Shown here: piece by piece, positions 1,927-19,497 of the stretch | How positions within the stretch are numbered: the first letter of the stretch is position 1 | How the letters are laid out: each line of letters starts with the position of its first letter | Made by a program: the position numbers and the translations under genes | The notes under the pieces: generated by a model | The model's input: only the letters and a program-made list of their open reading frames with translations | Databases searched by the model: none | What the model was told of the DNA's origin: nothing | DNA from: a virus | Taxonomy: Duplodnaviria; Heunggongvirae; Uroviricota; Caudoviricetes | IMG/VR virus record: IMGVR_UViG_2600254985_000001 | DNA: 19,497 nucleotides | Direction: 5' to 3' (one strand)

Positions 1927-2886
1927 TTATTTAATGAAGTAACTTCCGTTACCACGTGTTGCAATAGGTGTTTTACCAATATCTGGTCCCCACCAAGTAA
2001 TACTACCGTTTGTGTCTATGTCAATATGGAAAGAAGTCTCATGTCCAGCAAAATGACCAACAATACTTTGAACAACAGCTGGACGAAATTCTTTATCTAC
2101 CCATGGTCCAGACATTTTAATGCCAGCTTTTGTAGTTGATACACTACCAAAGAGTCTAACAATTACTAAATCATCGTTCTTTTTAGTGAATTGCAACTGC
2201 ATACCATTTCCAGTTTGAATTGTCAACATTTGAGTTGGAACATCGATTGTACCTCTAAGTGATATATCATTTGCATTGATTGAACCTTTAAGCGATAAAT
2301 TATTTGCGTTGATTGAACCTTTAAGTGATAAATTATTTGCATTGATTGAATCTTTAAGTGATAAATCGTTTGCGTTGATTGAACCTTTAAGCGATAAATT
2401 ATTTGCATTGATTGAATCTTTAAGTGATAAATCGTTTGCAGAAATACTATCTAAAGTACTAGCCTGAAGAATTGGCTTAATGCTTGTTACACCAGTTCCT
2501 GAAGTCGTAACAACATCAAAACAAACTTTCAAAACGCCAGAACCGTTGTTTATATCAACACCGTTACTATTATTTGATGTTTCTGCTGATAAACTTACAG
2601 GGTTTGCTGTTTGCGTTAAGTCAATATTTGCATGGATATAATTAACTGCATTACCTTTTAAGGCAACAGTTTCATTCAATAGTTCAAAATACCTCCCGCC
2701 TGCAACGATTGATGTGTTAACATATTGCACGTTAAGGGCTGTATTTAATGGACTTTTCCAATCTTTGCGCCTAATTGTTCTATAGCCCATTCCAGTCAAC
2801 ATCATGTATAGTTTTCCGTCATTATTAGAACCGACTGGAAACTCTGTACCATTTGGACTGAAAAACGTGAAGTTTTTAATTGTCAT
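1927..2886 (-). CDS. rbp: receptor-binding protein (RBP, 936/p2-type) with a repeat-expanded neck
   Basis: 319-aa ORF in the RBP position (last structural gene before the holin). Its N-terminus ([11 protein letters not shown]...) and C-terminal region are consistent with my recollection of p2-type RBP shoulder and head domains. AAAGG ribosome-binding site 7 nt upstream of the ATG at 2884..2886. Confidence 0.8.
2239..2451 (-). repeat. in-frame 33-bp tandem repeats (about 6 units) encoding 11-aa units [11 protein letters not shown] / [11 protein letters not shown] within the RBP
   Basis: Directly visible: near-identical 33-bp units repeated head-to-tail. The translated RBP reads ...[68 protein letters not shown]... 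(residues about 146..216). Confidence 0.9.
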
Positions 2887-3184
2887 TTTTAACCTTTCTT
2901 GAAATTATTTCCGCTTTATCTAAAACTGGGTTATCAGTAATTGATAGCTCTAACAATCTAAATTTTCTACCGCCATAAGGATAACCACCAATTGATACAA
3001 ATTGTCCGACTTCATACAAGAGCGTGGTCTCGATTCTAAGCGTGTTTTTACTATTATAGTACACTTTACCTTGCAATAGTTCTAAGTGGTCTTTACGAAG
3101 CTCTCTATGCCCTTTAAAGCTATCTATTCTATATTTGTCGCCATAAGTAGCTACATACTCATATAACATTCGGTTTGTCTCCAC
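2876..3184 (-). CDS. hypothetical structural-module protein between Tal and RBP (102 aa)
   Basis: ORF in the conserved position between Tal and RBP. Overlaps the Tal 3' end and the RBP 5' end, a compact arrangement typical of a phage late operon. No recognisable motif. Confidence 0.5.
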
Positions 3185-4286
3185 TTCCTACAAAAATAAG
3201 TCTATCATTGAACTCTGTTTTAACTCTATCTGCTATATATCCTGAATATAGCTTGCCCTCGTACCAAATATCTACTAAGTCATTAACATACAAAGGAAAA
3301 AGTTCATTTTGATTAAAGAATAACCTTGTGACGATTGTAGAGGGAGAAATTTCAACCTTAATAGTAGACAACTCAGGAGGGTTTCCGTGGTCATCTCTAT
3401 CATAAAACAATGTTTTGGTTGTCCTTACATCTGGCAAGTCTGTTCCGTCTCCATGATAAGTGCTATAATCAATGACATCTCCGTTATTTTTTGCTGTGTA
3501 CATTTTAGGAGGGTCTGTGTAGTCATCTGTTGCTTTATTTTTAACGAACACAACAGCAAAATTATAAGCTGAACGTTCTACTATTGTTTCCGTGTCCATT
3601 GTCACACTTTGCTTAATATCTACCCTTGTCGTGATTCTTTTTCTATTCCAGTTTCTTGAAGCAAAGTTAATGAATAACAAGTTTCTAGGGTCTGTTTCAG
3701 ATGGAGCGTGTTGAATGGTTGTAGTTGGTTGAAATTGAACCTTGGAAAATATCCTTTTTGCTACATCATGAGCTGATGAAGTTTCCGCTTTACGATTAAT
3801 CGTAGCCTTTCCAGCAAAGATACTTGAATCAAAGAAATAACCATAACTCATTAAATTATTTTTATTAGGGTCAATTAAATAATTAATTATACCAGAGTTT
3901 GTCTTTTTGGCTATTGCGTTTGGAACGTCAAGACTTTCAATCATTGCCCAAAAGTAGTTTTTTAACGTAGCTTTATTACTTTCGTCTACATCGGTCACAA
4001 GGTAAACCATATCTAAATTCAGTTTTTTCCTCTTACCTAGAGCTTCTTCAATTGGAACAACTTCAGGAAAAAGTACTTGAACAATATCGCCAACTTCTAC
4101 CGAAACGGTCAATGTAGCTGATGAAGTGTAAAGATAGCCTGTTTCCCACAGTTCGTAATCAATAACTTGACATCTTGCCTTTGGTATTGGAAGGCCTCTT
4201 TTTTCTTTTTTACCATTAGGCATTCTGAAATCAGATATATTGTAATAGTTAGGGTTAAAGTTATCATAAACGTTAGCTTCTAACAT
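3159..4286 (-). CDS. tal: tail-associated protein Tal (short form, no C-terminal lysin extension)
   Basis: 375-aa ORF directly downstream of Dit, with its start overlapping the Dit stop. The size matches my recollection of the short Tal of p2-like 936 phages. No peptidase or glycosidase motif noticed. Confidence 0.65.
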   Translation of the reverse strand: MLEANVYDNFNPNYYNISDFRMPNGKKEKRGLPIPKARCQVIDYELWETGYLYTSSATLTVSVEVGDIVQVLFPEVVPIEEALGKRKKLNLDMVYLVTDVDESNKATLKNYFWAMIESLDVPNAIAKKTNSGIINYLIDPNKNNLMSYGYFFDSSIFAGKATINRKAETSSAHDVAKRIFSKVQFQPTTTIQHAPSETDPRNLLFINFASRNWNRKRITTRVDIKQSVTMDTETIVERSAYNFAVVFVKNKATDDYTDPPKMYTAKNNGDVIDYSTYHGDGTDLPDVRTTKTLFYDRDDHGNPPELSTIKVEISPSTIVTRLFFNQNELFPLYVNDLVDIWYEGKLYSGYIADRVKTEFNDRLIFVGSGDKPNVI

Positions 4287-5182
4287 TAAATAAAGTCCGC
4301 CTTTCTCTTGATTTTAAGCTCTGCCTTACTTAAATTAACTAGCTCCATTTGACCTTTTTCAATTATACGAGTTCTGTATCGCTCAAAGTTCATTACAGGG
4401 AATAAGTTTAGTACAGTTGTACCCTTCCAGCCTTGATAAAATTCGTCATTTACATCTGTATTAATTAAAATATAATCTTGTACCTGTTCCGTCTTAAACA
4501 CAATTGCAGTATATTCGTTTCCAACATCGTCTAAAAATCTAACTCCAGCAGGTGTTTTAGGAAGTTTCGGATATAATACCCCCATAAAACTAAATATTTT
4601 TTCTTTTATTTCCCAACGGCTTAAACGGCCTATGTCACTTTCCCCATAATAAGTGTAAGAGGTTCCTTCGATATACTTATAGTCTCCTGGTGCGGTTCCT
4701 CCATAAATTTTAGACTTACCAGAAAGAACTTTACCATTTTCAATCATGTCAAAAGTTAAATTTTCGTAAGTATACCACTTTGTAACTACATCGAAAGTTA
4801 TCTTTTCGCTGAAAGTTCCGTTCTTACCGTAACCCTCTGTCTTTGTGACATCTGCTAAAGCTAAATCAGCATACACCTGAAAAATTTCTGTTTGATATTC
4901 AAGTGTAACGAATTTTTTGCTAAGAATATCGTTTACGAAGTCTTTCATTAATTGATAATTTTCTTCTAAACTTTCTCCAAACGTTTCTAGCTTAAACTCT
5001 ATTTGTGGTTGAGTAATTGAGCGTTTTCCCATTATTCCAATACCATTACTTTGCCAGATGTTATTAGTTGATTGTAACCCTAAATTAGAGGGCTGGTAAA
5101 ATCTAACTTTTCCATTTGTAACGTCCCAAACTTTGTCGTCTGTTCCGTCTAAGTTAGTATGTATTTTATACTGTCTTACCAT
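4286..5182 (-). CDS. dit: distal tail protein Dit
   Basis: 298-aa ORF immediately downstream of the tape measure gene (start overlaps the TMP stop). Canonical Dit position and size for 936-group phages, with no obvious inserted domain. Confidence 0.65.
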   Translation of the reverse strand: MVRQYKIHTNLDGTDDKVWDVTNGKVRFYQPSNLGLQSTNNIWQSNGIGIMGKRSITQPQIEFKLETFGESLEENYQLMKDFVNDILSKKFVTLEYQTEIFQVYADLALADVTKTEGYGKNGTFSEKITFDVVTKWYTYENLTFDMIENGKVLSGKSKIYGGTAPGDYKYIEGTSYTYYGESDIGRLSRWEIKEKIFSFMGVLYPKLPKTPAGVRFLDDVGNEYTAIVFKTEQVQDYILINTDVNDEFYQGWKGTTVLNLFPVMNFERYRTRIIEKGQMELVNLSKAELKIKRKADFI

Positions 5183-8172
5183 TAAGCCCTCCCTAGTTCA
5201 AATTCTCGTCTGATTGCACGCGCTAAGTTAGAAACATCTTGACCAGCACCGCCTTGCACGTTAAATGTGTTATATGTTCTATTGTCGCTTGATACACTGT
5301 TAGTGCTTAAACCGTAACCGCTAGAAGATAAATTGACATCTGTTAAGCCTACTACCATAGAACCTTTGAATAGTCCGCCAACTTTACTTGCAACCCAATC
5401 AATTGAACCTTTGATATTTTTAATTGTATCTGTTACACCTCCAAGAACGCTGTCTATTGTATCTTTGACTCCTCCAAATATTCCGCTAAAGAAGTCGCCA
5501 ATGCCCTTAAATACTCCTGTTATTGCATCCCAAGCATTTGAAGCAAATTTACCAAAAGCCTCGAATACTCCGCTAACTATATCTTTAGCACCGTCAAACG
5601 CTCCCTTAAAGAAATCAGCTACTCCGTTAAATACACCTGAAATTGCATCCCAAGCTTTTGAAGCAAAGCCACCAAGAGCGCTAAACACTCCGCTAACGAC
5701 ACTGCGAACAGAATTGAATATGCCACTAAAGAAGCCTGAAACTGCATTCCATATTGATGAAACTACTCCCCAAGCGCTAGAAGCAAAACTTCCGATTGCA
5801 CTAAATACTGTTGAAACTACTGATTTTACAGCGTTAAATATACCGCCAAAGAAGCCTGAAACTGCATTCCATACGCCAACCAGTATATCCCAAGCTGAAC
5901 CAGCAAAGCTACCTATGGCGCTAAATACTGTTGAAACTATTGAACTAACTGCGTTAAATATTACACCAAAGAAACCTGATATGCCGTTCCACGCTCCGAT
6001 AACTAATTGGTAAGCACCGCGAATAATAGCCAATATAAGTTGGAATGCTAAATTAATTACTGATCCAACTAACCCAAATATAGATTGAAAGAAACTAATT
6101 AAAGGTTGGAAAGTTGTAACAAACCAGTTATAAGCACCTGTCACTAAAGAAGCAATGGTTGTAAATACAGTTGTAACAACATTTACTATTCCGTCCCATA
6201 GCCCTGTGAAGAACCCTGTAACTCCTGCCCATGCTGTTTGAATACCAGTAACAACAGTTGTCCATAAAGTAGTAAAGAATGTTGTTATTCCGTTCCAAAT
6301 ATTTTGAACACCTTGTACAATTCCACTGAACCAATCGACTAAGCCTTGCCAAATGCCTTTAGCTCCGTCAACTGCTCCGTTCCATATATCAGCAAACCAT
6401 TGACCAATACCGCTAAAGAATGAAACTATTCCGTCCCATGCACTCTTTAAGAAGTCTACGAAACTACCCCAAACCTTTTTACCTGTTTCGGTTTGAGTGA
6501 AGAAGTAAACTAAACCAGCAACAATGGCTGCGATTGCTATGCCAAGAGCCACGAATGGATTCATAGCCATTACAGCATTGAAAGCTCCTTGTATAATTGT
6601 ACCAGCTTCAACAACCTTATTATATATCTCGACAGCCTTAATGATTCCATCAATAACTTTCAAAGCAACGAATACACTAGCCAAAGCAGCTAAAGCTACT
6701 TTTAAAGTATCTATTGCGCTTTTACTTTCACTAATTTTTTGCAGAAAATCAGCTATTTTTTTCGTGACTTCTGAAAATTTACCAGCAAATACAGCTATGC
6801 TTTTTGCTACGTTATCTATACTTGTTGCGTTTTTTGTTGTTTCTGTATTTATTCCAATAAATGAATTTATGACATTCCCTATAATAGAAACTATGGAACC
6901 AAATGCACTTTTTATGCTATCCCAAGCCTCTAAAAATGCTAAAGTGGCTGCATTTTCTTGCAGTTTTTGAAACAAGTCTTGGAAATACTTAACTACATTT
7001 GTTACAGCTTTACCAGCACTTTCGCCCCAGTCAGACATCTGGTCTATTAAGCCACTAATGATAGGTGTTAAAGCGTTCAAAGTAGGCACTAAAGCAATTG
7101 ACATTGTTTCGTTGAAGCTGTCCCACGCGTCCCCAATAGTTTTGATTCCACCGCCCGAACCTTTAGCCATTTTTTCCATAGCCTTGTTGAGCATATCCAT
7201 CGAAACAGCGCCTTTTGAAACAGCGTCATTAAAAGAACCGTATTGCTGTAATGAGGGGTTCATTTTCATAACAGTGTCTTTTAAAGAAGAACCAAGAGCT
7301 GTGTTGTTATCGGTTAATTGTCCAATATTTTCAGCCGTAACTTTACCAGCTGCCGACATTTGACCGTAAGACTGAACTACACCTTTAAGGTTTTCGCCAG
7401 TACCACCAAATGCTTGGTTAGCTTTTACTAATGCTTCTGTTTTACTGACCGCTTTTTTAGCGCTATCGCCTAAACCAATGAACGTTGTTGAAAGTTTTAA
7501 AGTATCTTCGGTATTTGCATTTGTATCTTTAGCAAGATTCTGCATAGATTTGCTTACATAGTCAAAGTCTTTTCCATTGCCTTTGAACTTCATTGTATTT
7601 TGCAATGAAATCATGGCTTTTTGAGTATCCATTGCGTTAGATACCCAGTCTTTTAAGCCGTTACCGACAGCACTAACAGCACTTGCACCGATTTGTCTGA
7701 ATGCACCAACAGCAATCTCTCTAAGACCGCTAAAGCGTGACTTCATGCCCTCAATTCCGCTATTAACGCCTTTAGTATCCATTTTAGCGTCAATGTTCCA
7801 AGAGCCTGAACTAATAGCACCCTCGACTTGCTTAATTTCGCCCTCTAGCCTATTAGCTTGTGTTTCTACTGTACCTAAATCTCTAGTAAGTTGTAGCCAT
7901 TTCTTTTGACCTGCTGACGTCCCTTTGTCAACCGTAGAAAGTTCTTCTTTTAATTTTGTTGCTTTGTCACGTGATAAGCCCAACTGCGTTTGTAAGTTCT
8001 TCTGCAATTGCGCCATTTTCCCGGTATTTGTGGGGTCAAGTTTTAGAGCTTCACGTAAGTTTTTAGCTTCTCCTCTAAGCCCTGACATTGCGGTATTAAC
8101 GCCTTTAAGTGAGTTCTCGAATTTCGTTGTATTACCGTATATCTCGACCTCAAATGTTGCATTACTTGCCAT
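5182..8172 (-). CDS. tmp: tail tape measure protein (TMP)
   Basis: 996-aa ORF. N-terminal coiled-coil-like region, central hydrophobic segments, and a C-terminal series of about 40-aa Gly/Phe/Trp-rich tandem repeats (GIFNAV.SVVSTVFSAIGSFA.SAW...). Its position between the chaperone genes and Dit is diagnostic. Confidence 0.9.
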   Translation of the reverse strand: MASNATFEVEIYGNTTKFENSLKGVNTAMSGLRGEAKNLREALKLDPTNTGKMAQLQKNLQTQLGLSRDKATKLKEELSTVDKGTSAGQKKWLQLTRDLGTVETQANRLEGEIKQVEGAISSGSWNIDAKMDTKGVNSGIEGMKSRFSGLREIAVGAFRQIGASAVSAVGNGLKDWVSNAMDTQKAMISLQNTMKFKGNGKDFDYVSKSMQNLAKDTNANTEDTLKLSTTFIGLGDSAKKAVSKTEALVKANQAFGGTGENLKGVVQSYGQMSAAGKVTAENIGQLTDNNTALGSSLKDTVMKMNPSLQQYGSFNDAVSKGAVSMDMLNKAMEKMAKGSGGGIKTIGDAWDSFNETMSIALVPTLNALTPIISGLIDQMSDWGESAGKAVTNVVKYFQDLFQKLQENAATLAFLEAWDSIKSAFGSIVSIIGNVINSFIGINTETTKNATSIDNVAKSIAVFAGKFSEVTKKIADFLQKISESKSAIDTLKVALAALASVFVALKVIDGIIKAVEIYNKVVEAGTIIQGAFNAVMAMNPFVALGIAIAAIVAGLVYFFTQTETGKKVWGSFVDFLKSAWDGIVSFFSGIGQWFADIWNGAVDGAKGIWQGLVDWFSGIVQGVQNIWNGITTFFTTLWTTVVTGIQTAWAGVTGFFTGLWDGIVNVVTTVFTTIASLVTGAYNWFVTTFQPLISFFQSIFGLVGSVINLAFQLILAIIRGAYQLVIGAWNGISGFFGVIFNAVSSIVSTVFSAIGSFAGSAWDILVGVWNAVSGFFGGIFNAVKSVVSTVFSAIGSFASSAWGVVSSIWNAVSGFFSGIFNSVRSVVSGVFSALGGFASKAWDAISGVFNGVADFFKGAFDGAKDIVSGVFEAFGKFASNAWDAITGVFKGIGDFFSGIFGGVKDTIDSVLGGVTDTIKNIKGSIDWVASKVGGLFKGSMVVGLTDVNLSSSGYGLSTNSVSSDNRTYNTFNVQGGAGQDVSNLARAIRREFELGRA

Positions 8173-16862: not shown

Positions 16863-18474
16863 CTGACACCGCCATTTCTAAAGCCATTGTCAAAGCAACA
16901 GTAGGGTCAATTTTATCTTTTTCAAGTTTTTTAGTATACATATAGTCCCCATTTTGTCCGATTTTAACAGCAGTATTATTTAAAGCCCACTGCATGACTT
17001 TTTGGTTATGGATAAGTTTATTTTCCGCTAACTTAGATTTTAATAGCTTGATATAGTCACTCATTGAGAAACCTTGTCGAATTGCTCTTTGGTTGTCTCC
17101 ATCTTTGTCAAAGAAATAACGCTCAATCAGCCCTTTTAAAATTTCATAGCGAGCTGGGTCGTATCCGACTTTTCTAAGTCTGCACCCTGTTTTGGTTCTA
17201 AAGTCATTAATATGCGGTATTAAGTCGTTCACATTGATGTATTCCGTATCAAGTAAGATTAGTTCGCCTCTGTCAACGAATTCAGTCCATAACTCTTGTT
17301 GTTCTGTGTCCAGTTGCTCATATTGAGACCGTACAGAGAAAGTTAGCGTATGGCTGTAAGTTTTACCCTCTAACTCACAAACGAACGATACAGCGGTTAA
17401 ATCGCCAATTAAGGATAGGTCAATTCCGACATAAGTTCTATTTTTATTAAATACAGATAAATTAAAGTCTGTTAGTTTAGTGTCTTGCGGAGTGAAGTAG
17501 TAAGCTGTATCCTGCATAGGTAAGCCCATATTAAACGCTAAGAACTTATTCTGTAACGCTGGGTCTCCTTGCGCAAGCTCGTACTCCTCAATAACTCCTG
17601 ACCACTTAGGAACATTGCCAATAAGTGGTAAAGCCATAGTCCAATTCTTTTTATCTTTGACCTGCTCATGATTTTCTAGCATGTAAAGCAAGCCGAATGA
17701 CCTATCATTGTAAAATTCTTCTTCTGATTTGAATCGTTCAACAAGTTTATCATAAAGTCCGTCGCGTTTAAGTCCGCCAGAAGTGATGTAAATACTTTGC
17801 CAGTTATCTTGTTTTTGACGTGAACCTTTATTAACTGACTCTGTTATATCCTCGCCATAGGTATGGACTTCATCAAATATATTAAGGGAACTGTTACCAC
17901 CTTGCGCTCGTAAAGTATCATTTGTTTGCTTTTTAAAAGTGGTTTTGAAAGACGTAAATTCTAGCCCTTGTTTTGTACTCTTGAAAATCTTGTTTTCATT
18001 GTACACTCTTAATGTATCACTTGCTTCCGTTTGATTCCTAACTTGGTCAAATACGTGTCTAGCCTGTGTATTATCGTATGCAATAACTAGACTTTCTCCG
18101 CCATATTGTCCGCCTAAAATCATCCAGTTAAGCACGCGCGTAGCCATTAAACTAGACTTACCTGATCCACGGCCTAAATTAAGAAAAATCTCATTAATTA
18201 GGTTGACTTGAACACCTTTTTCATCAACCATATCATAGCCTAACATTAACTCATACCACCATTTTTGTGTTGGAAGTAGCTCAATTTTCATCAGGTTACC
18301 AGTAGTCAGGTAGAAGTTGTCTTCTATCCATTCAATAGCTTGCGTAACACGGTCATAGCGATAAATATATTTGTTATGAATACGTATTTGCTTCTGAATA
18401 GTCTTGCGAATGTACTTATTAATAATAATGCCGTTTTCTTTGTTGTATTCCAACATTTTATTTAAATAATACAT
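16852..18474 (-). CDS. terL: terminase large subunit
   Basis: 540-aa ORF with a Walker A-like motif (LGRGSGKSS, around residue 100) and acidic residues in the C-terminal nuclease region. Lies downstream of terS. Confidence 0.9.
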
Positions 18475-18485
18475 TCATTCCCTTT

Positions 18486-18716
18486 CTATTCAAATACTGA
18501 TTGCAAATATTCATCTGAATATGGACACCAACCTTCGTCATCAGTCATTTCTTTTTTAAGTTGTTTCCAGTTTGAAAACTGACCAATAATAGAATCGTTG
18601 TCTCCACACGTCTCACAATAATCTTCAACTTCTTCTAATTCTTTTTCTGAAGTATTTTCTGACATCAGATAAAGTCCTCCGCCCAAATGGTCTTCAACTA
18701 CCCAATATTTTTTCAT
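18486..18716 (-). CDS. small acidic Cys-containing hypothetical protein between terS and terL (76 aa)
   Basis: ORF with an ATGA overlap with the terS stop. Contains CETCGD and WCPY, a possible small zinc-ribbon-like fold. No functional assignment. Confidence 0.5.
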   Translation of the reverse strand: MKKYWVVEDHLGGGLYLMSENTSEKELEEVEDYCETCGDNDSIIGQFSNWKQLKKEMTDDEGWCPYSDEYLQSVFE

Positions 18717-19237
18717 TCAAACCCCTCTGGGACTTTGATTTCTGGCGTTTTATACTTACTTAGCTTATAGTCGTCAAGTTCTTCAATTTTAGCTTTAAGG
18801 TCATGAGCACTTGATTCTTCCTGTTGCAATCTCCGCCATTCAGTAGGGTTATAAAGTTCAGGGTTTCCAGCCTTAGCAACCATCATTGCTACCAAGCTAT
18901 CTTTATCAAGTTCTTTCTCTTTAACCTTTACTTTTTCAACGTTTCCGTCAGCGTCATATATTGTTTCTGTTTCTTTTAGCGTTCTGACTGTCAGTTTGCT
19001 CGCTAAGGCACTTTCGGCTAGTTCTAATAGATTTCCCCTAGCAATGCTTTTAGCTTCGTCATACGCCTTTATATTGTCATCTCGCCACTTTCTAAAAGTT
19101 TTAGCCGAACAATGCAAACTGGTGTAGATTTCTCTGTCATTACAGCCTGATTCAATTTTATCAATGATTTGGCTAAAAAGCGGTTCTTCATACATCTTAG
19201 GTAAAATTGTGGGTCTGCCACCTTTTTGTGTTTGCAT
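18713..19237 (-). CDS. terS: terminase small subunit
   Basis: 174-aa ORF, first gene of the late operon, preceded by an AAGGA ribosome-binding site. N-terminal helix-turn-helix-like region and acidic C-terminus. Sits immediately downstream of a repeat-containing non-coding region. Confidence 0.7.
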   Translation of the reverse strand: MQTQKGGRPTILPKMYEEPLFSQIIDKIESGCNDREIYTSLHCSAKTFRKWRDDNIKAYDEAKSIARGNLLELAESALASKLTVRTLKETETIYDADGNVEKVKVKEKELDKDSLVAMMVAKAGNPELYNPTEWRRLQQEESSAHDLKAKIEELDDYKLSKYKTPEIKVPEGFE

Positions 19238-19311
19238 ATTATCCTTTCTTTTAAATGTGGTTATATCGTTTAAAGCCTATATTTTCGTTCCTGTGAGCGT
19301 TAAGTTAATTA

Positions 19312-19330
19312 GACTTAAATTATATCGTAA
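19312..19330 (-). promoter_or_regulatory. candidate late promoter -10 element (TATAAT on the minus strand at 19319..19324) upstream of terS
   Basis: Perfect TATAAT hexamer on the minus strand about 80 nt upstream of the terS start. No convincing -35 hexamer at 17 bp spacing. Confidence 0.25.
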
Positions 19331-19394
19331 TGATATAAACACGCTCATACGAGCCAAAATATTAGCATATAGCCATATAATTTCCTTTTTATTT

Positions 19395-19451
19395 GAGATT
19401 TAGCGAGATTTAGCGAGATTTAGCGAGATTTAGCAAGATTTAGCGAGATTT
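19395..19451. repeat. tandem 10-bp direct repeat array (GAGATTTAGC, five units plus a partial unit; the fifth unit has G->A at its first base)
   Basis: Directly visible: gagatttagc gagatttagc gagatttagc gagatttagc aagatttagc gagattt, in the non-coding region upstream of terS. Confidence 0.9.
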
Positions 19452-19464
19452 TTCTTTTTGATTT

Positions 19465-19497
19465 TTTGGGGGATTCGCAGCCGGGAGTCCTTTGTGC
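19465..19497. other. GC-rich segment at the window edge, candidate cos or packaging-site region
   Basis: GGGGGATTCGCAGCCGGGAGTCCTTTGTGC is strongly GC-rich against an approximately 35% GC background. It contains an imperfect inverted repeat (GGATTC ... GAGTCC) and sits just beyond the repeat array upstream of terS. Confidence 0.3.

Follow-up and report, generated by a model that had tools for sequence, protein, structure and literature searches.

A conserved imperfect palindrome with exchangeable central cassettes between cos and terS of Skunaviruses, and a candidate late promoter at its centre

Results

The left genome end of a dairy Skunavirus

The window, by which we mean the whole stretch of 19,497 nucleotides that was analysed, corresponds, in reverse complement, to the leftmost 19.5 kb of the genome of a dairy Lactococcus Skunavirus (936-type). 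With Lactococcus phage AF6 and six sister phages it shares 100% identity over its last 397 bases, which are the first 397 in those genomes; 376 Skunavirus (936-type) records in GenBank match this part. The window extends one base past the cos overhang CACAAAGGACT and thus represents the reverse complement of genome positions 1 to ~19496. This overhang is the conserved cos sequence of the 936-type group (PMC6105707, PMC4759559). The receptor-binding protein ORF (1927..2886, minus strand) is 22 amino acids longer than its AF6 homologue, so the phage in the window is not AF6 itself. The receptor-binding protein gene also holds a 33/66-nt tandem repeat (window 2241-2440, six copies, 86-93% matches), and another tandem repeat, of 120 nt (5717-5979, 2.2 copies, 77% matches), lies in the tape measure protein gene (ORF 5182..8172, minus strand).

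The genes at this genome end are read from the minus strand in the order terS, a 76-aa ORF, terL, an HNH endonuclease gene, portal, protease and capsid. An original prediction had placed an activator-dependent late promoter upstream of terS, on the strength of a perfect -10 hexamer that lacks a -35 element and is flanked by short repeats. The gene downstream is indeed terS (PF07141, E 4e-121), and the site falls within the 260 non-coding nucleotides that separate cos from this first late gene, at a distance of 167-207 nt from the left genome end. The features of the region, all on the minus strand, are as follows.

19486..19496, minus: cos, the 11-nt cohesive-end sequence CACAAAGGACT and left physical end of the genome (from the sequence; GenBank Skunavirus records begin at window position 19496)
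19395..19451, minus: 10-bp phased tandem repeat CGCTAAATCT, 5.7 copies (TRF score 107)
19341..19383, minus: upstream conserved block, the 5' arm of the palindrome, with helix strand 19362-19341 (alignments, pair counts)
19301..19340, minus: variable central cassette, here allele A, which holds hairpins 1 and 2 (folds, allele comparison)
19338-19332 / 19326-19320, minus: hairpin 1, TTATATC-N5-GATATAA, whose 3' arm contains TATAAT (folds)
19319..19324, minus: TATAAT hexamer, candidate -10, in the 3' arm of hairpin 1
19318-19313 / 19305-19300, minus: hairpin 2, TTAAGT-N7-ACTTAA (folds)
19258..19300, minus: downstream conserved block, the 3' arm of the palindrome, with helix strand 19300-19279
19243..19249, minus: terS ribosome-binding site GAAAGGA (from the sequence; a ribosome-binding site is annotated at the equivalent place in bIBB29)
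18713..19237, minus: terS, small terminase subunit, first gene of the late operon (annotated in AF6, sk1, bIL170 and bIL41)

The CGCTAAATCT array corresponds to the "AATCT" direct repeats described for 936-type cos regions (PMC6105707). It is very regular in the window; relatives have 5-6 less regular AATCT repeats. On the plus strand, a 79-aa ORF (19164-19403) runs antisense over the terS start and the palindrome and is probably spurious. The sequence immediately upstream of cos differs among phages (bIL41 L35061 540-1030; AF6 2850-3490) and includes tRNA genes and a small membrane-protein ORF, as well as apparent remnants of an HNH endonuclease gene in bIL41; a conserved AT-rich/C-rich stretch, AAAATATTTTTTTATATATACCCCCCC, precedes cos in every phage compared there. 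In IMGVR_UViG_2684622568_000001 (1240-1260), unrelated DNA adjoins the cos-proximal sequence CGGCTGCGAATCCCCC... on its upstream side and the cos overhang is missing; the junction may stem from a chimeric assembly, or the copy may be rearranged or integrated.

The flanking repeats are arms of a palindrome

The repeats lie where the original prediction had put them: TTATATCGT occurs on the plus strand at 19261-19269 and 19320-19328, GAGCGT is found at 19295-19300 and ACGCTC at 19341-19346. The 9-mer TTATATCGT has two copies in 19.5 kb, both in this region, a number reached by 3 of 200 shuffled sequences. GAGCGT and ACGCTC are the innermost bases of an inverted repeat whose 40-nt arms (19261-19300 / 19341-19380) are complementary at 29 of 40 positions; the best of 300 dinucleotide shuffles had 25. 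The short repeats are thus genuine and no product of chance, yet they form the arms of a palindrome and are not independent direct repeats. The 40-nt imperfect palindrome encloses two perfect small hairpins, one of which carries TATAAT, and the second ACGATATAA copy (19269-19261) lies in the downstream conserved block. The whole is a bipartite, strand-symmetric and conserved imperfect palindrome of ~120 bp (19258-19383) between cos and terS, which has TATAAT at its centre and the flanking repeats as its arms. A search for further copies of the arm motifs across the 19.5-kb late region found none, so that the element is unique there, which counts in favour of a late promoter.

The element is fixed relative to terS in relatives

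The region was gathered from IMG/VR, metagenomes and GenBank, which gave ~190 copies and, depending on the boundaries chosen, 93-121 unique sequences. The metagenomes were scanned with a loose pattern; most of the loci, at least 120 in number, were chance matches, and only Skunavirus-like loci were taken. Among the relatives, the upstream block AATTATAGGGCTATATGCTCATATTTTGGCT is almost invariant, and its ATATTTTGGCT segment is without any variant. The downstream block AGAAACGARAATATAGGCTTTAAACGATATAA is likewise almost invariant and is followed by the ribosome-binding site. The two blocks are constantly 67-69 nt apart (~120 unique relatives), and 22-24 nt lie between the end of the downstream block and the terS ATG. 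The distance from cos to the element ranges from 96 to 137 nt, mostly in 10-nt steps (96, 106, 116, 126, 136), because the number of 10-bp AATCT repeats differs among phages.

From these alignments, the palindromic element by all appearances heads the late operon in all Skunaviruses. At three loci (L148 167-364; L260; L073), an ORF of 65 aa and unknown function is inserted between the palindrome and terS. The inserted ORF uses the native ribosome-binding site of the element and terS gains a new one, so that the element remains at the head of the operon.

Central cassettes differ between lineages and share a hexamer register

Between the two blocks lies a cassette of constant length, for which we distinguish five alleles. 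As A and E are related, at least four are unrelated in sequence. Allele A is found in the window, in AF6, in sk1 and in bIL170 (103 GenBank records), allele B is the majority allele and includes p2, bIBB29 and bIL41 (270 GenBank records), and alleles C, D and E are rare. TATAAT is invariant in allele A (16 of 16 unique sequences) and missing from the other alleles. It is missing from ~72% of sequenced relatives, among them bIL41 (103 GenBank genomes with the hexamer versus 270 without).

The other alleles have TAAACT (B), TAATCT (D), TATAAC (E) and GAAATA (C) at the register of the hexamer, and one variant of allele B has TAAACC. A TANNNT starts at -41 from the downstream block in A, B and D, although these alleles are unrelated in sequence, and the central motif stands at a fixed register as GA-TATAAT-T, GG-TAAACT-T and GA-TAATCT-T. 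TAAACT is the sole TANNNT in the entire allele B spacer. Allele E has TGA before its TATAAC, and allele C has no TANNNT at the register. The chance that at least two of the four other alleles share the TANNNT register is roughly p ~0.02. This is suggestive of a functional hexamer without being decisive.

Allele B gives additional information about the nature of the constraint. Its 84 unique sequences hardly differ in the 3' half GGTAAACTTATAAGC; in the loop and in the complementary 5' half (GTTACCC) they differ freely, with no compensating changes. The constraint at the hexamer of allele B is thus on sequence and not on pairing. A search for TerS residues that co-vary with the cassette allele found none.

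The TATAAT hexamer taken by itself

A perfect TATAAT is present on the minus strand, 81 nt upstream of the terS ATG, and the original prediction was also right about the missing -35: GAGCGT, TGAGCG and ATGAGC, at 16-18 nt upstream, match TTGACA at no more than 2 of 6 positions. There is no TG extension; CGA stands before the hexamer. The site was not called in a promoter scan. TATAAT occurs 28 times in the window, compared with 26 +/- 4.8 expected, and the chance of finding one on the terS strand within the 260-nt gap is ~1 in 6. As this is chance frequency, the hexamer alone carries no information. Terminator-like sites (a GC-rich hairpin with a T-run) were absent from 18400-19497, and so none separates the hexamer from terS.

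Two other candidates were considered and rejected. The sigma-70-like TTGGCT-16-TATCAT (19357..19330) has a -10 that is confined to allele A, by inspection of the allele sequences, and the TATAAC of the downstream block has a sixth base that varies freely (C/T/G/A).

Complementarity is maintained at the DNA level

RNAalifold, applied to 60 sequences, returned a single helix of 18 pairs, formed by window 19362-19341 with 19300-19279. These pairs are kept in 98.1% of cells, compared with 43-59% when the partner is slid, and five of them have changed on both sides. If the late transcript started upstream of the palindrome (in the invariant block or above cos), the arms could fold in its 5' leader, stabilise or process the late mRNA and leave TATAAT as mere loop sequence. 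The maintained pairing and its double changes agree with such a leader, as do the fold of the sense strand in allele A (z = -3.9 to -4.3) and the end of the helix directly before the ribosome-binding site. However, all five double changes fall on the split between lineages A and B and therefore represent very few independent events, and the outer arm varies without compensation. The fold z-scores (sense/antisense) are -4.3/-7.0 for A, -2.0/-1.4 for B, -1.8/-2.6 for C, -0.3/-0.8 for D and -2.4/-2.4 for E, so that the majority allele B and allele D fold weakly as RNA. The strand preference flips as well, with A folding better antisense (11 of 11 unique sequences) and B better sense (79 of 79). 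The sense strand has an invariant C.A and two G.G mismatches, and the mismatches of the helix are strand-symmetric. The variable cores, folded alone, are unstructured, and a search of Rfam gave no hit above noise (MIR7504 scored 18 bits, the cut-off being 83). Neither strand-specific covariation nor a known family, which would speak for a structured cis-regulatory RNA, was found.

We therefore reject conserved RNA structure as the main explanation, because of the weak z-scores in B and D, the inconsistent strand preference and the unstructured cores, and regard a functional leader hairpin as improbable. The element is an imperfect palindrome at the DNA level, with maintained complementarity, and is not convincingly a structured RNA.

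Discussion

A late-operon control region as the preferred reading

Going by position and conservation, we think that the palindrome may control transcription of the late operon: the central hexamer would be its -10, and the arms, or the invariant TTTTGGCT block, would be the target of an activator. We put the probability of this reading at about 0.4. The predicted transcription start would lie near 19313-19311 (~19312) and give a leader of ~75 nt. Recognition of a -35 would be replaced by a phage-encoded activator that binds the conserved arms or, at about -40 to -50, the invariant TTTTGGCT block, and the element would then be the counterpart of the activator-dependent late promoter, with a -10 but no -35, that has been reported for bIL41.

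The location between cos and terS, the missing -35 and the missing terminator all count in favour of a late promoter. So do the fixed position of the element relative to the ATG and not to cos, its place at the operon head despite the insertions of the 65-aa ORF, and the sequence constraint on GGTAAACTTATAAGC in allele B. The competing conserved TATAAC, with its unconstrained last base, points in the same direction. Several findings count against it. TATAAT occurs at chance frequency and is missing from 72% of relatives; the register is occupied by TATAAC in E, by GAAATA in C and by TAAACC in one B variant, and TAAACT agrees with the consensus at just 4 of 6 positions. The invariant upstream block offers further conserved hexamers with 4/6 matches (TATGCT, TATTTT), and there is conserved AT-rich sequence immediately upstream of cos. 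Moreover, a promoter alone leaves the complementarity of the arms, with its compensatory changes between alleles, unexplained, which also counts against this reading.

The original prediction holds up in part. The site is upstream of terS, it has a -10 without a -35, and the TANNNT register is shared by A, B and D; on the other hand, TATAAT is specific to one allele (103 versus 270 genomes), it is absent in bIL41, and a late promoter is not annotated. That the repeats proposed as activator sites are arms of a palindrome also counts against the prediction. No known late-activator family, including RinA/ArpU/Alt-type proteins, was recognised among 10 early proteins of AF6. The records of sk1, bIL170, bIBB29 and bIL41 contain no late promoter annotation; that of sk1 in GenBank gives early promoters, a middle promoter and, at 540 nt from the right genome end, a "putative terminator for middle transcripts". 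In the accessible full-text literature we found no mapped late start site for any 936-type phage. Ribosome profiling and RNA-seq of sk1 detected no differentially expressed late gene through the last (15-min) time point (PMC10986495).

Packaging site or chance hexamer

A rival reading is a packaging module that resembles cosB of lambda. The small terminase or a host bending protein would bind the arms as inverted sites, which a spacer of free sequence holds at fixed spacing as in R3-I1-R2 of lambda cosB, the phased 10-bp A-tract repeats would bend the DNA toward cos, and TATAAT would be incidental to an AT-rich spacer. The genomic position, from nick site to terS, is that of lambda cosB (cos at 19486-19496, element at 19258-19383, terS start at 19237). 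The conserved arms are inverted and strictly spaced at 67-69 nt around a freely replaceable spacer, the 10-nt steps in the distance from cos preserve helical phase, and strand-symmetric mismatches are what a DNA-level palindrome should have. Putative terminase sites R1-R4 have also been placed in this cos region (PMC6105707). According to the description in the same paper, however, R2 coincides with the last AATCT repeat, so that the R sites are inferred to lie nearer to cos, which counts against a cosB-like role of the palindrome. In addition, the distance between cos and the element varies by 40 nt and that between the element and the ATG is fixed, no TerS residue co-varies with the allele and TerS binding is itself putative, and the central motif of allele B is constrained in sequence, unlike a passive spacer. 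On balance we consider a packaging module doubtful, if well worth keeping in mind.

The hexamer could also be a product of chance in an AT-rich recombination cassette that merely keeps the spacing of the arms, with the late promoter located elsewhere. Its chance frequency, its absence from most relatives and the unrelated sequences of the cassette alleles would be accounted for. What makes this unlikely is that the central motif is kept within alleles while its neighbours vary, that unrelated alleles have the TANNNT register in common, and that TATAAT is invariant in all 16 unique sequences of allele A.

Comparison with known systems

The late-operon control region that we favour has its closest counterpart in the late promoter PL of bIL41, a phage of the same genus with the same gene order as the window (cos, a non-coding gap, terS as first late ORF). 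Late transcription of bIL41 reportedly begins 9 min after infection, from a promoter with a -10 and without a -35, and is said to need the synthesis of a phage activator; the reported late transcript is 16 kb long, and its first ORF is L1 (terS). We take PL to be of the same class as the site proposed in the window (a -10, no -35, activator-dependent). However, bIL41 (L35061) carries allele B, with TAAACT at 1334-1339 and TATAAG at 1340-1345 where the window has TATAAT, and there is no TATAAT between its cos and L1. The activator-dependent class with a -10 and without a -35 would thus be established in this genus, and its placement at TATAAT is a candidate only and unproven.

In lambda, cosB (R3-I1-R2-R1) lies between cosN and Nu1 and consists of inverted protein-binding repeats with a bent spacer and with intrinsic bend elements nearby. 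The element in the window also lies between a cohesive-end nick site and a small terminase gene. It differs in that there is no sequence similarity, that the spacing to cos is variable in Skunaviruses and that TerS binding is putative here; moreover, Lactococcus, to our knowledge, has no IHF.

Late promoters that depend on an activator are also known from other siphophages of Gram-positive bacteria, such as the Alt-dependent promoter of TP901-1. Skunaviruses differ from the phages with RinA/Ltr and Alt systems in being strictly lytic. The binding-site architectures of these systems are not comparable with the Skunavirus element, and no RinA/ArpU/Alt-type protein is among the AF6 early proteins that were tested. 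In Staphylococcus phages, a phage activator (RinA/Ltr) turns on a single late operon promoter immediately upstream of terS (Ferrer et al., 2011, PMC3152322).

Implications for Skunavirus biology

A bipartite palindrome with swappable central cassettes of fixed length is modestly new; the element type itself is known, and the group of phages is well studied. Whether the element is a late promoter or a terminase recognition site, the advance would be incremental and within a well-known scheme.

A bolder model, in which the late promoter is coupled to the packaging site, is a long shot. The head of the late operon would be a strand-symmetric palindromic module whose arms clamp a swappable -10 cassette of fixed length, and late transcription would need a protein that binds the arms. 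This protein, an activator or the terminase itself, would bind both arms and present the cassette to RNA polymerase, with at least four unrelated cassette alleles circulating in dairy phages. If this were true, late expression would be coupled to the packaging site, and promoter strength or timing would be exchangeable by cassette recombination.

Skunaviruses are the main cause of phage-induced failure of dairy fermentations. If the element is a terminase recognition site, it defines the minimal cos region for transduction. If the centre of the palindrome is the late promoter, it would reveal the sequences that the putative late activator recognises, and some of the non-coding diversity among factory isolates would be accounted for by the cassette alleles. 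Phage-triggered defence constructs and CRISPR-based phage engineering would then also have a defined target in the palindrome centre.
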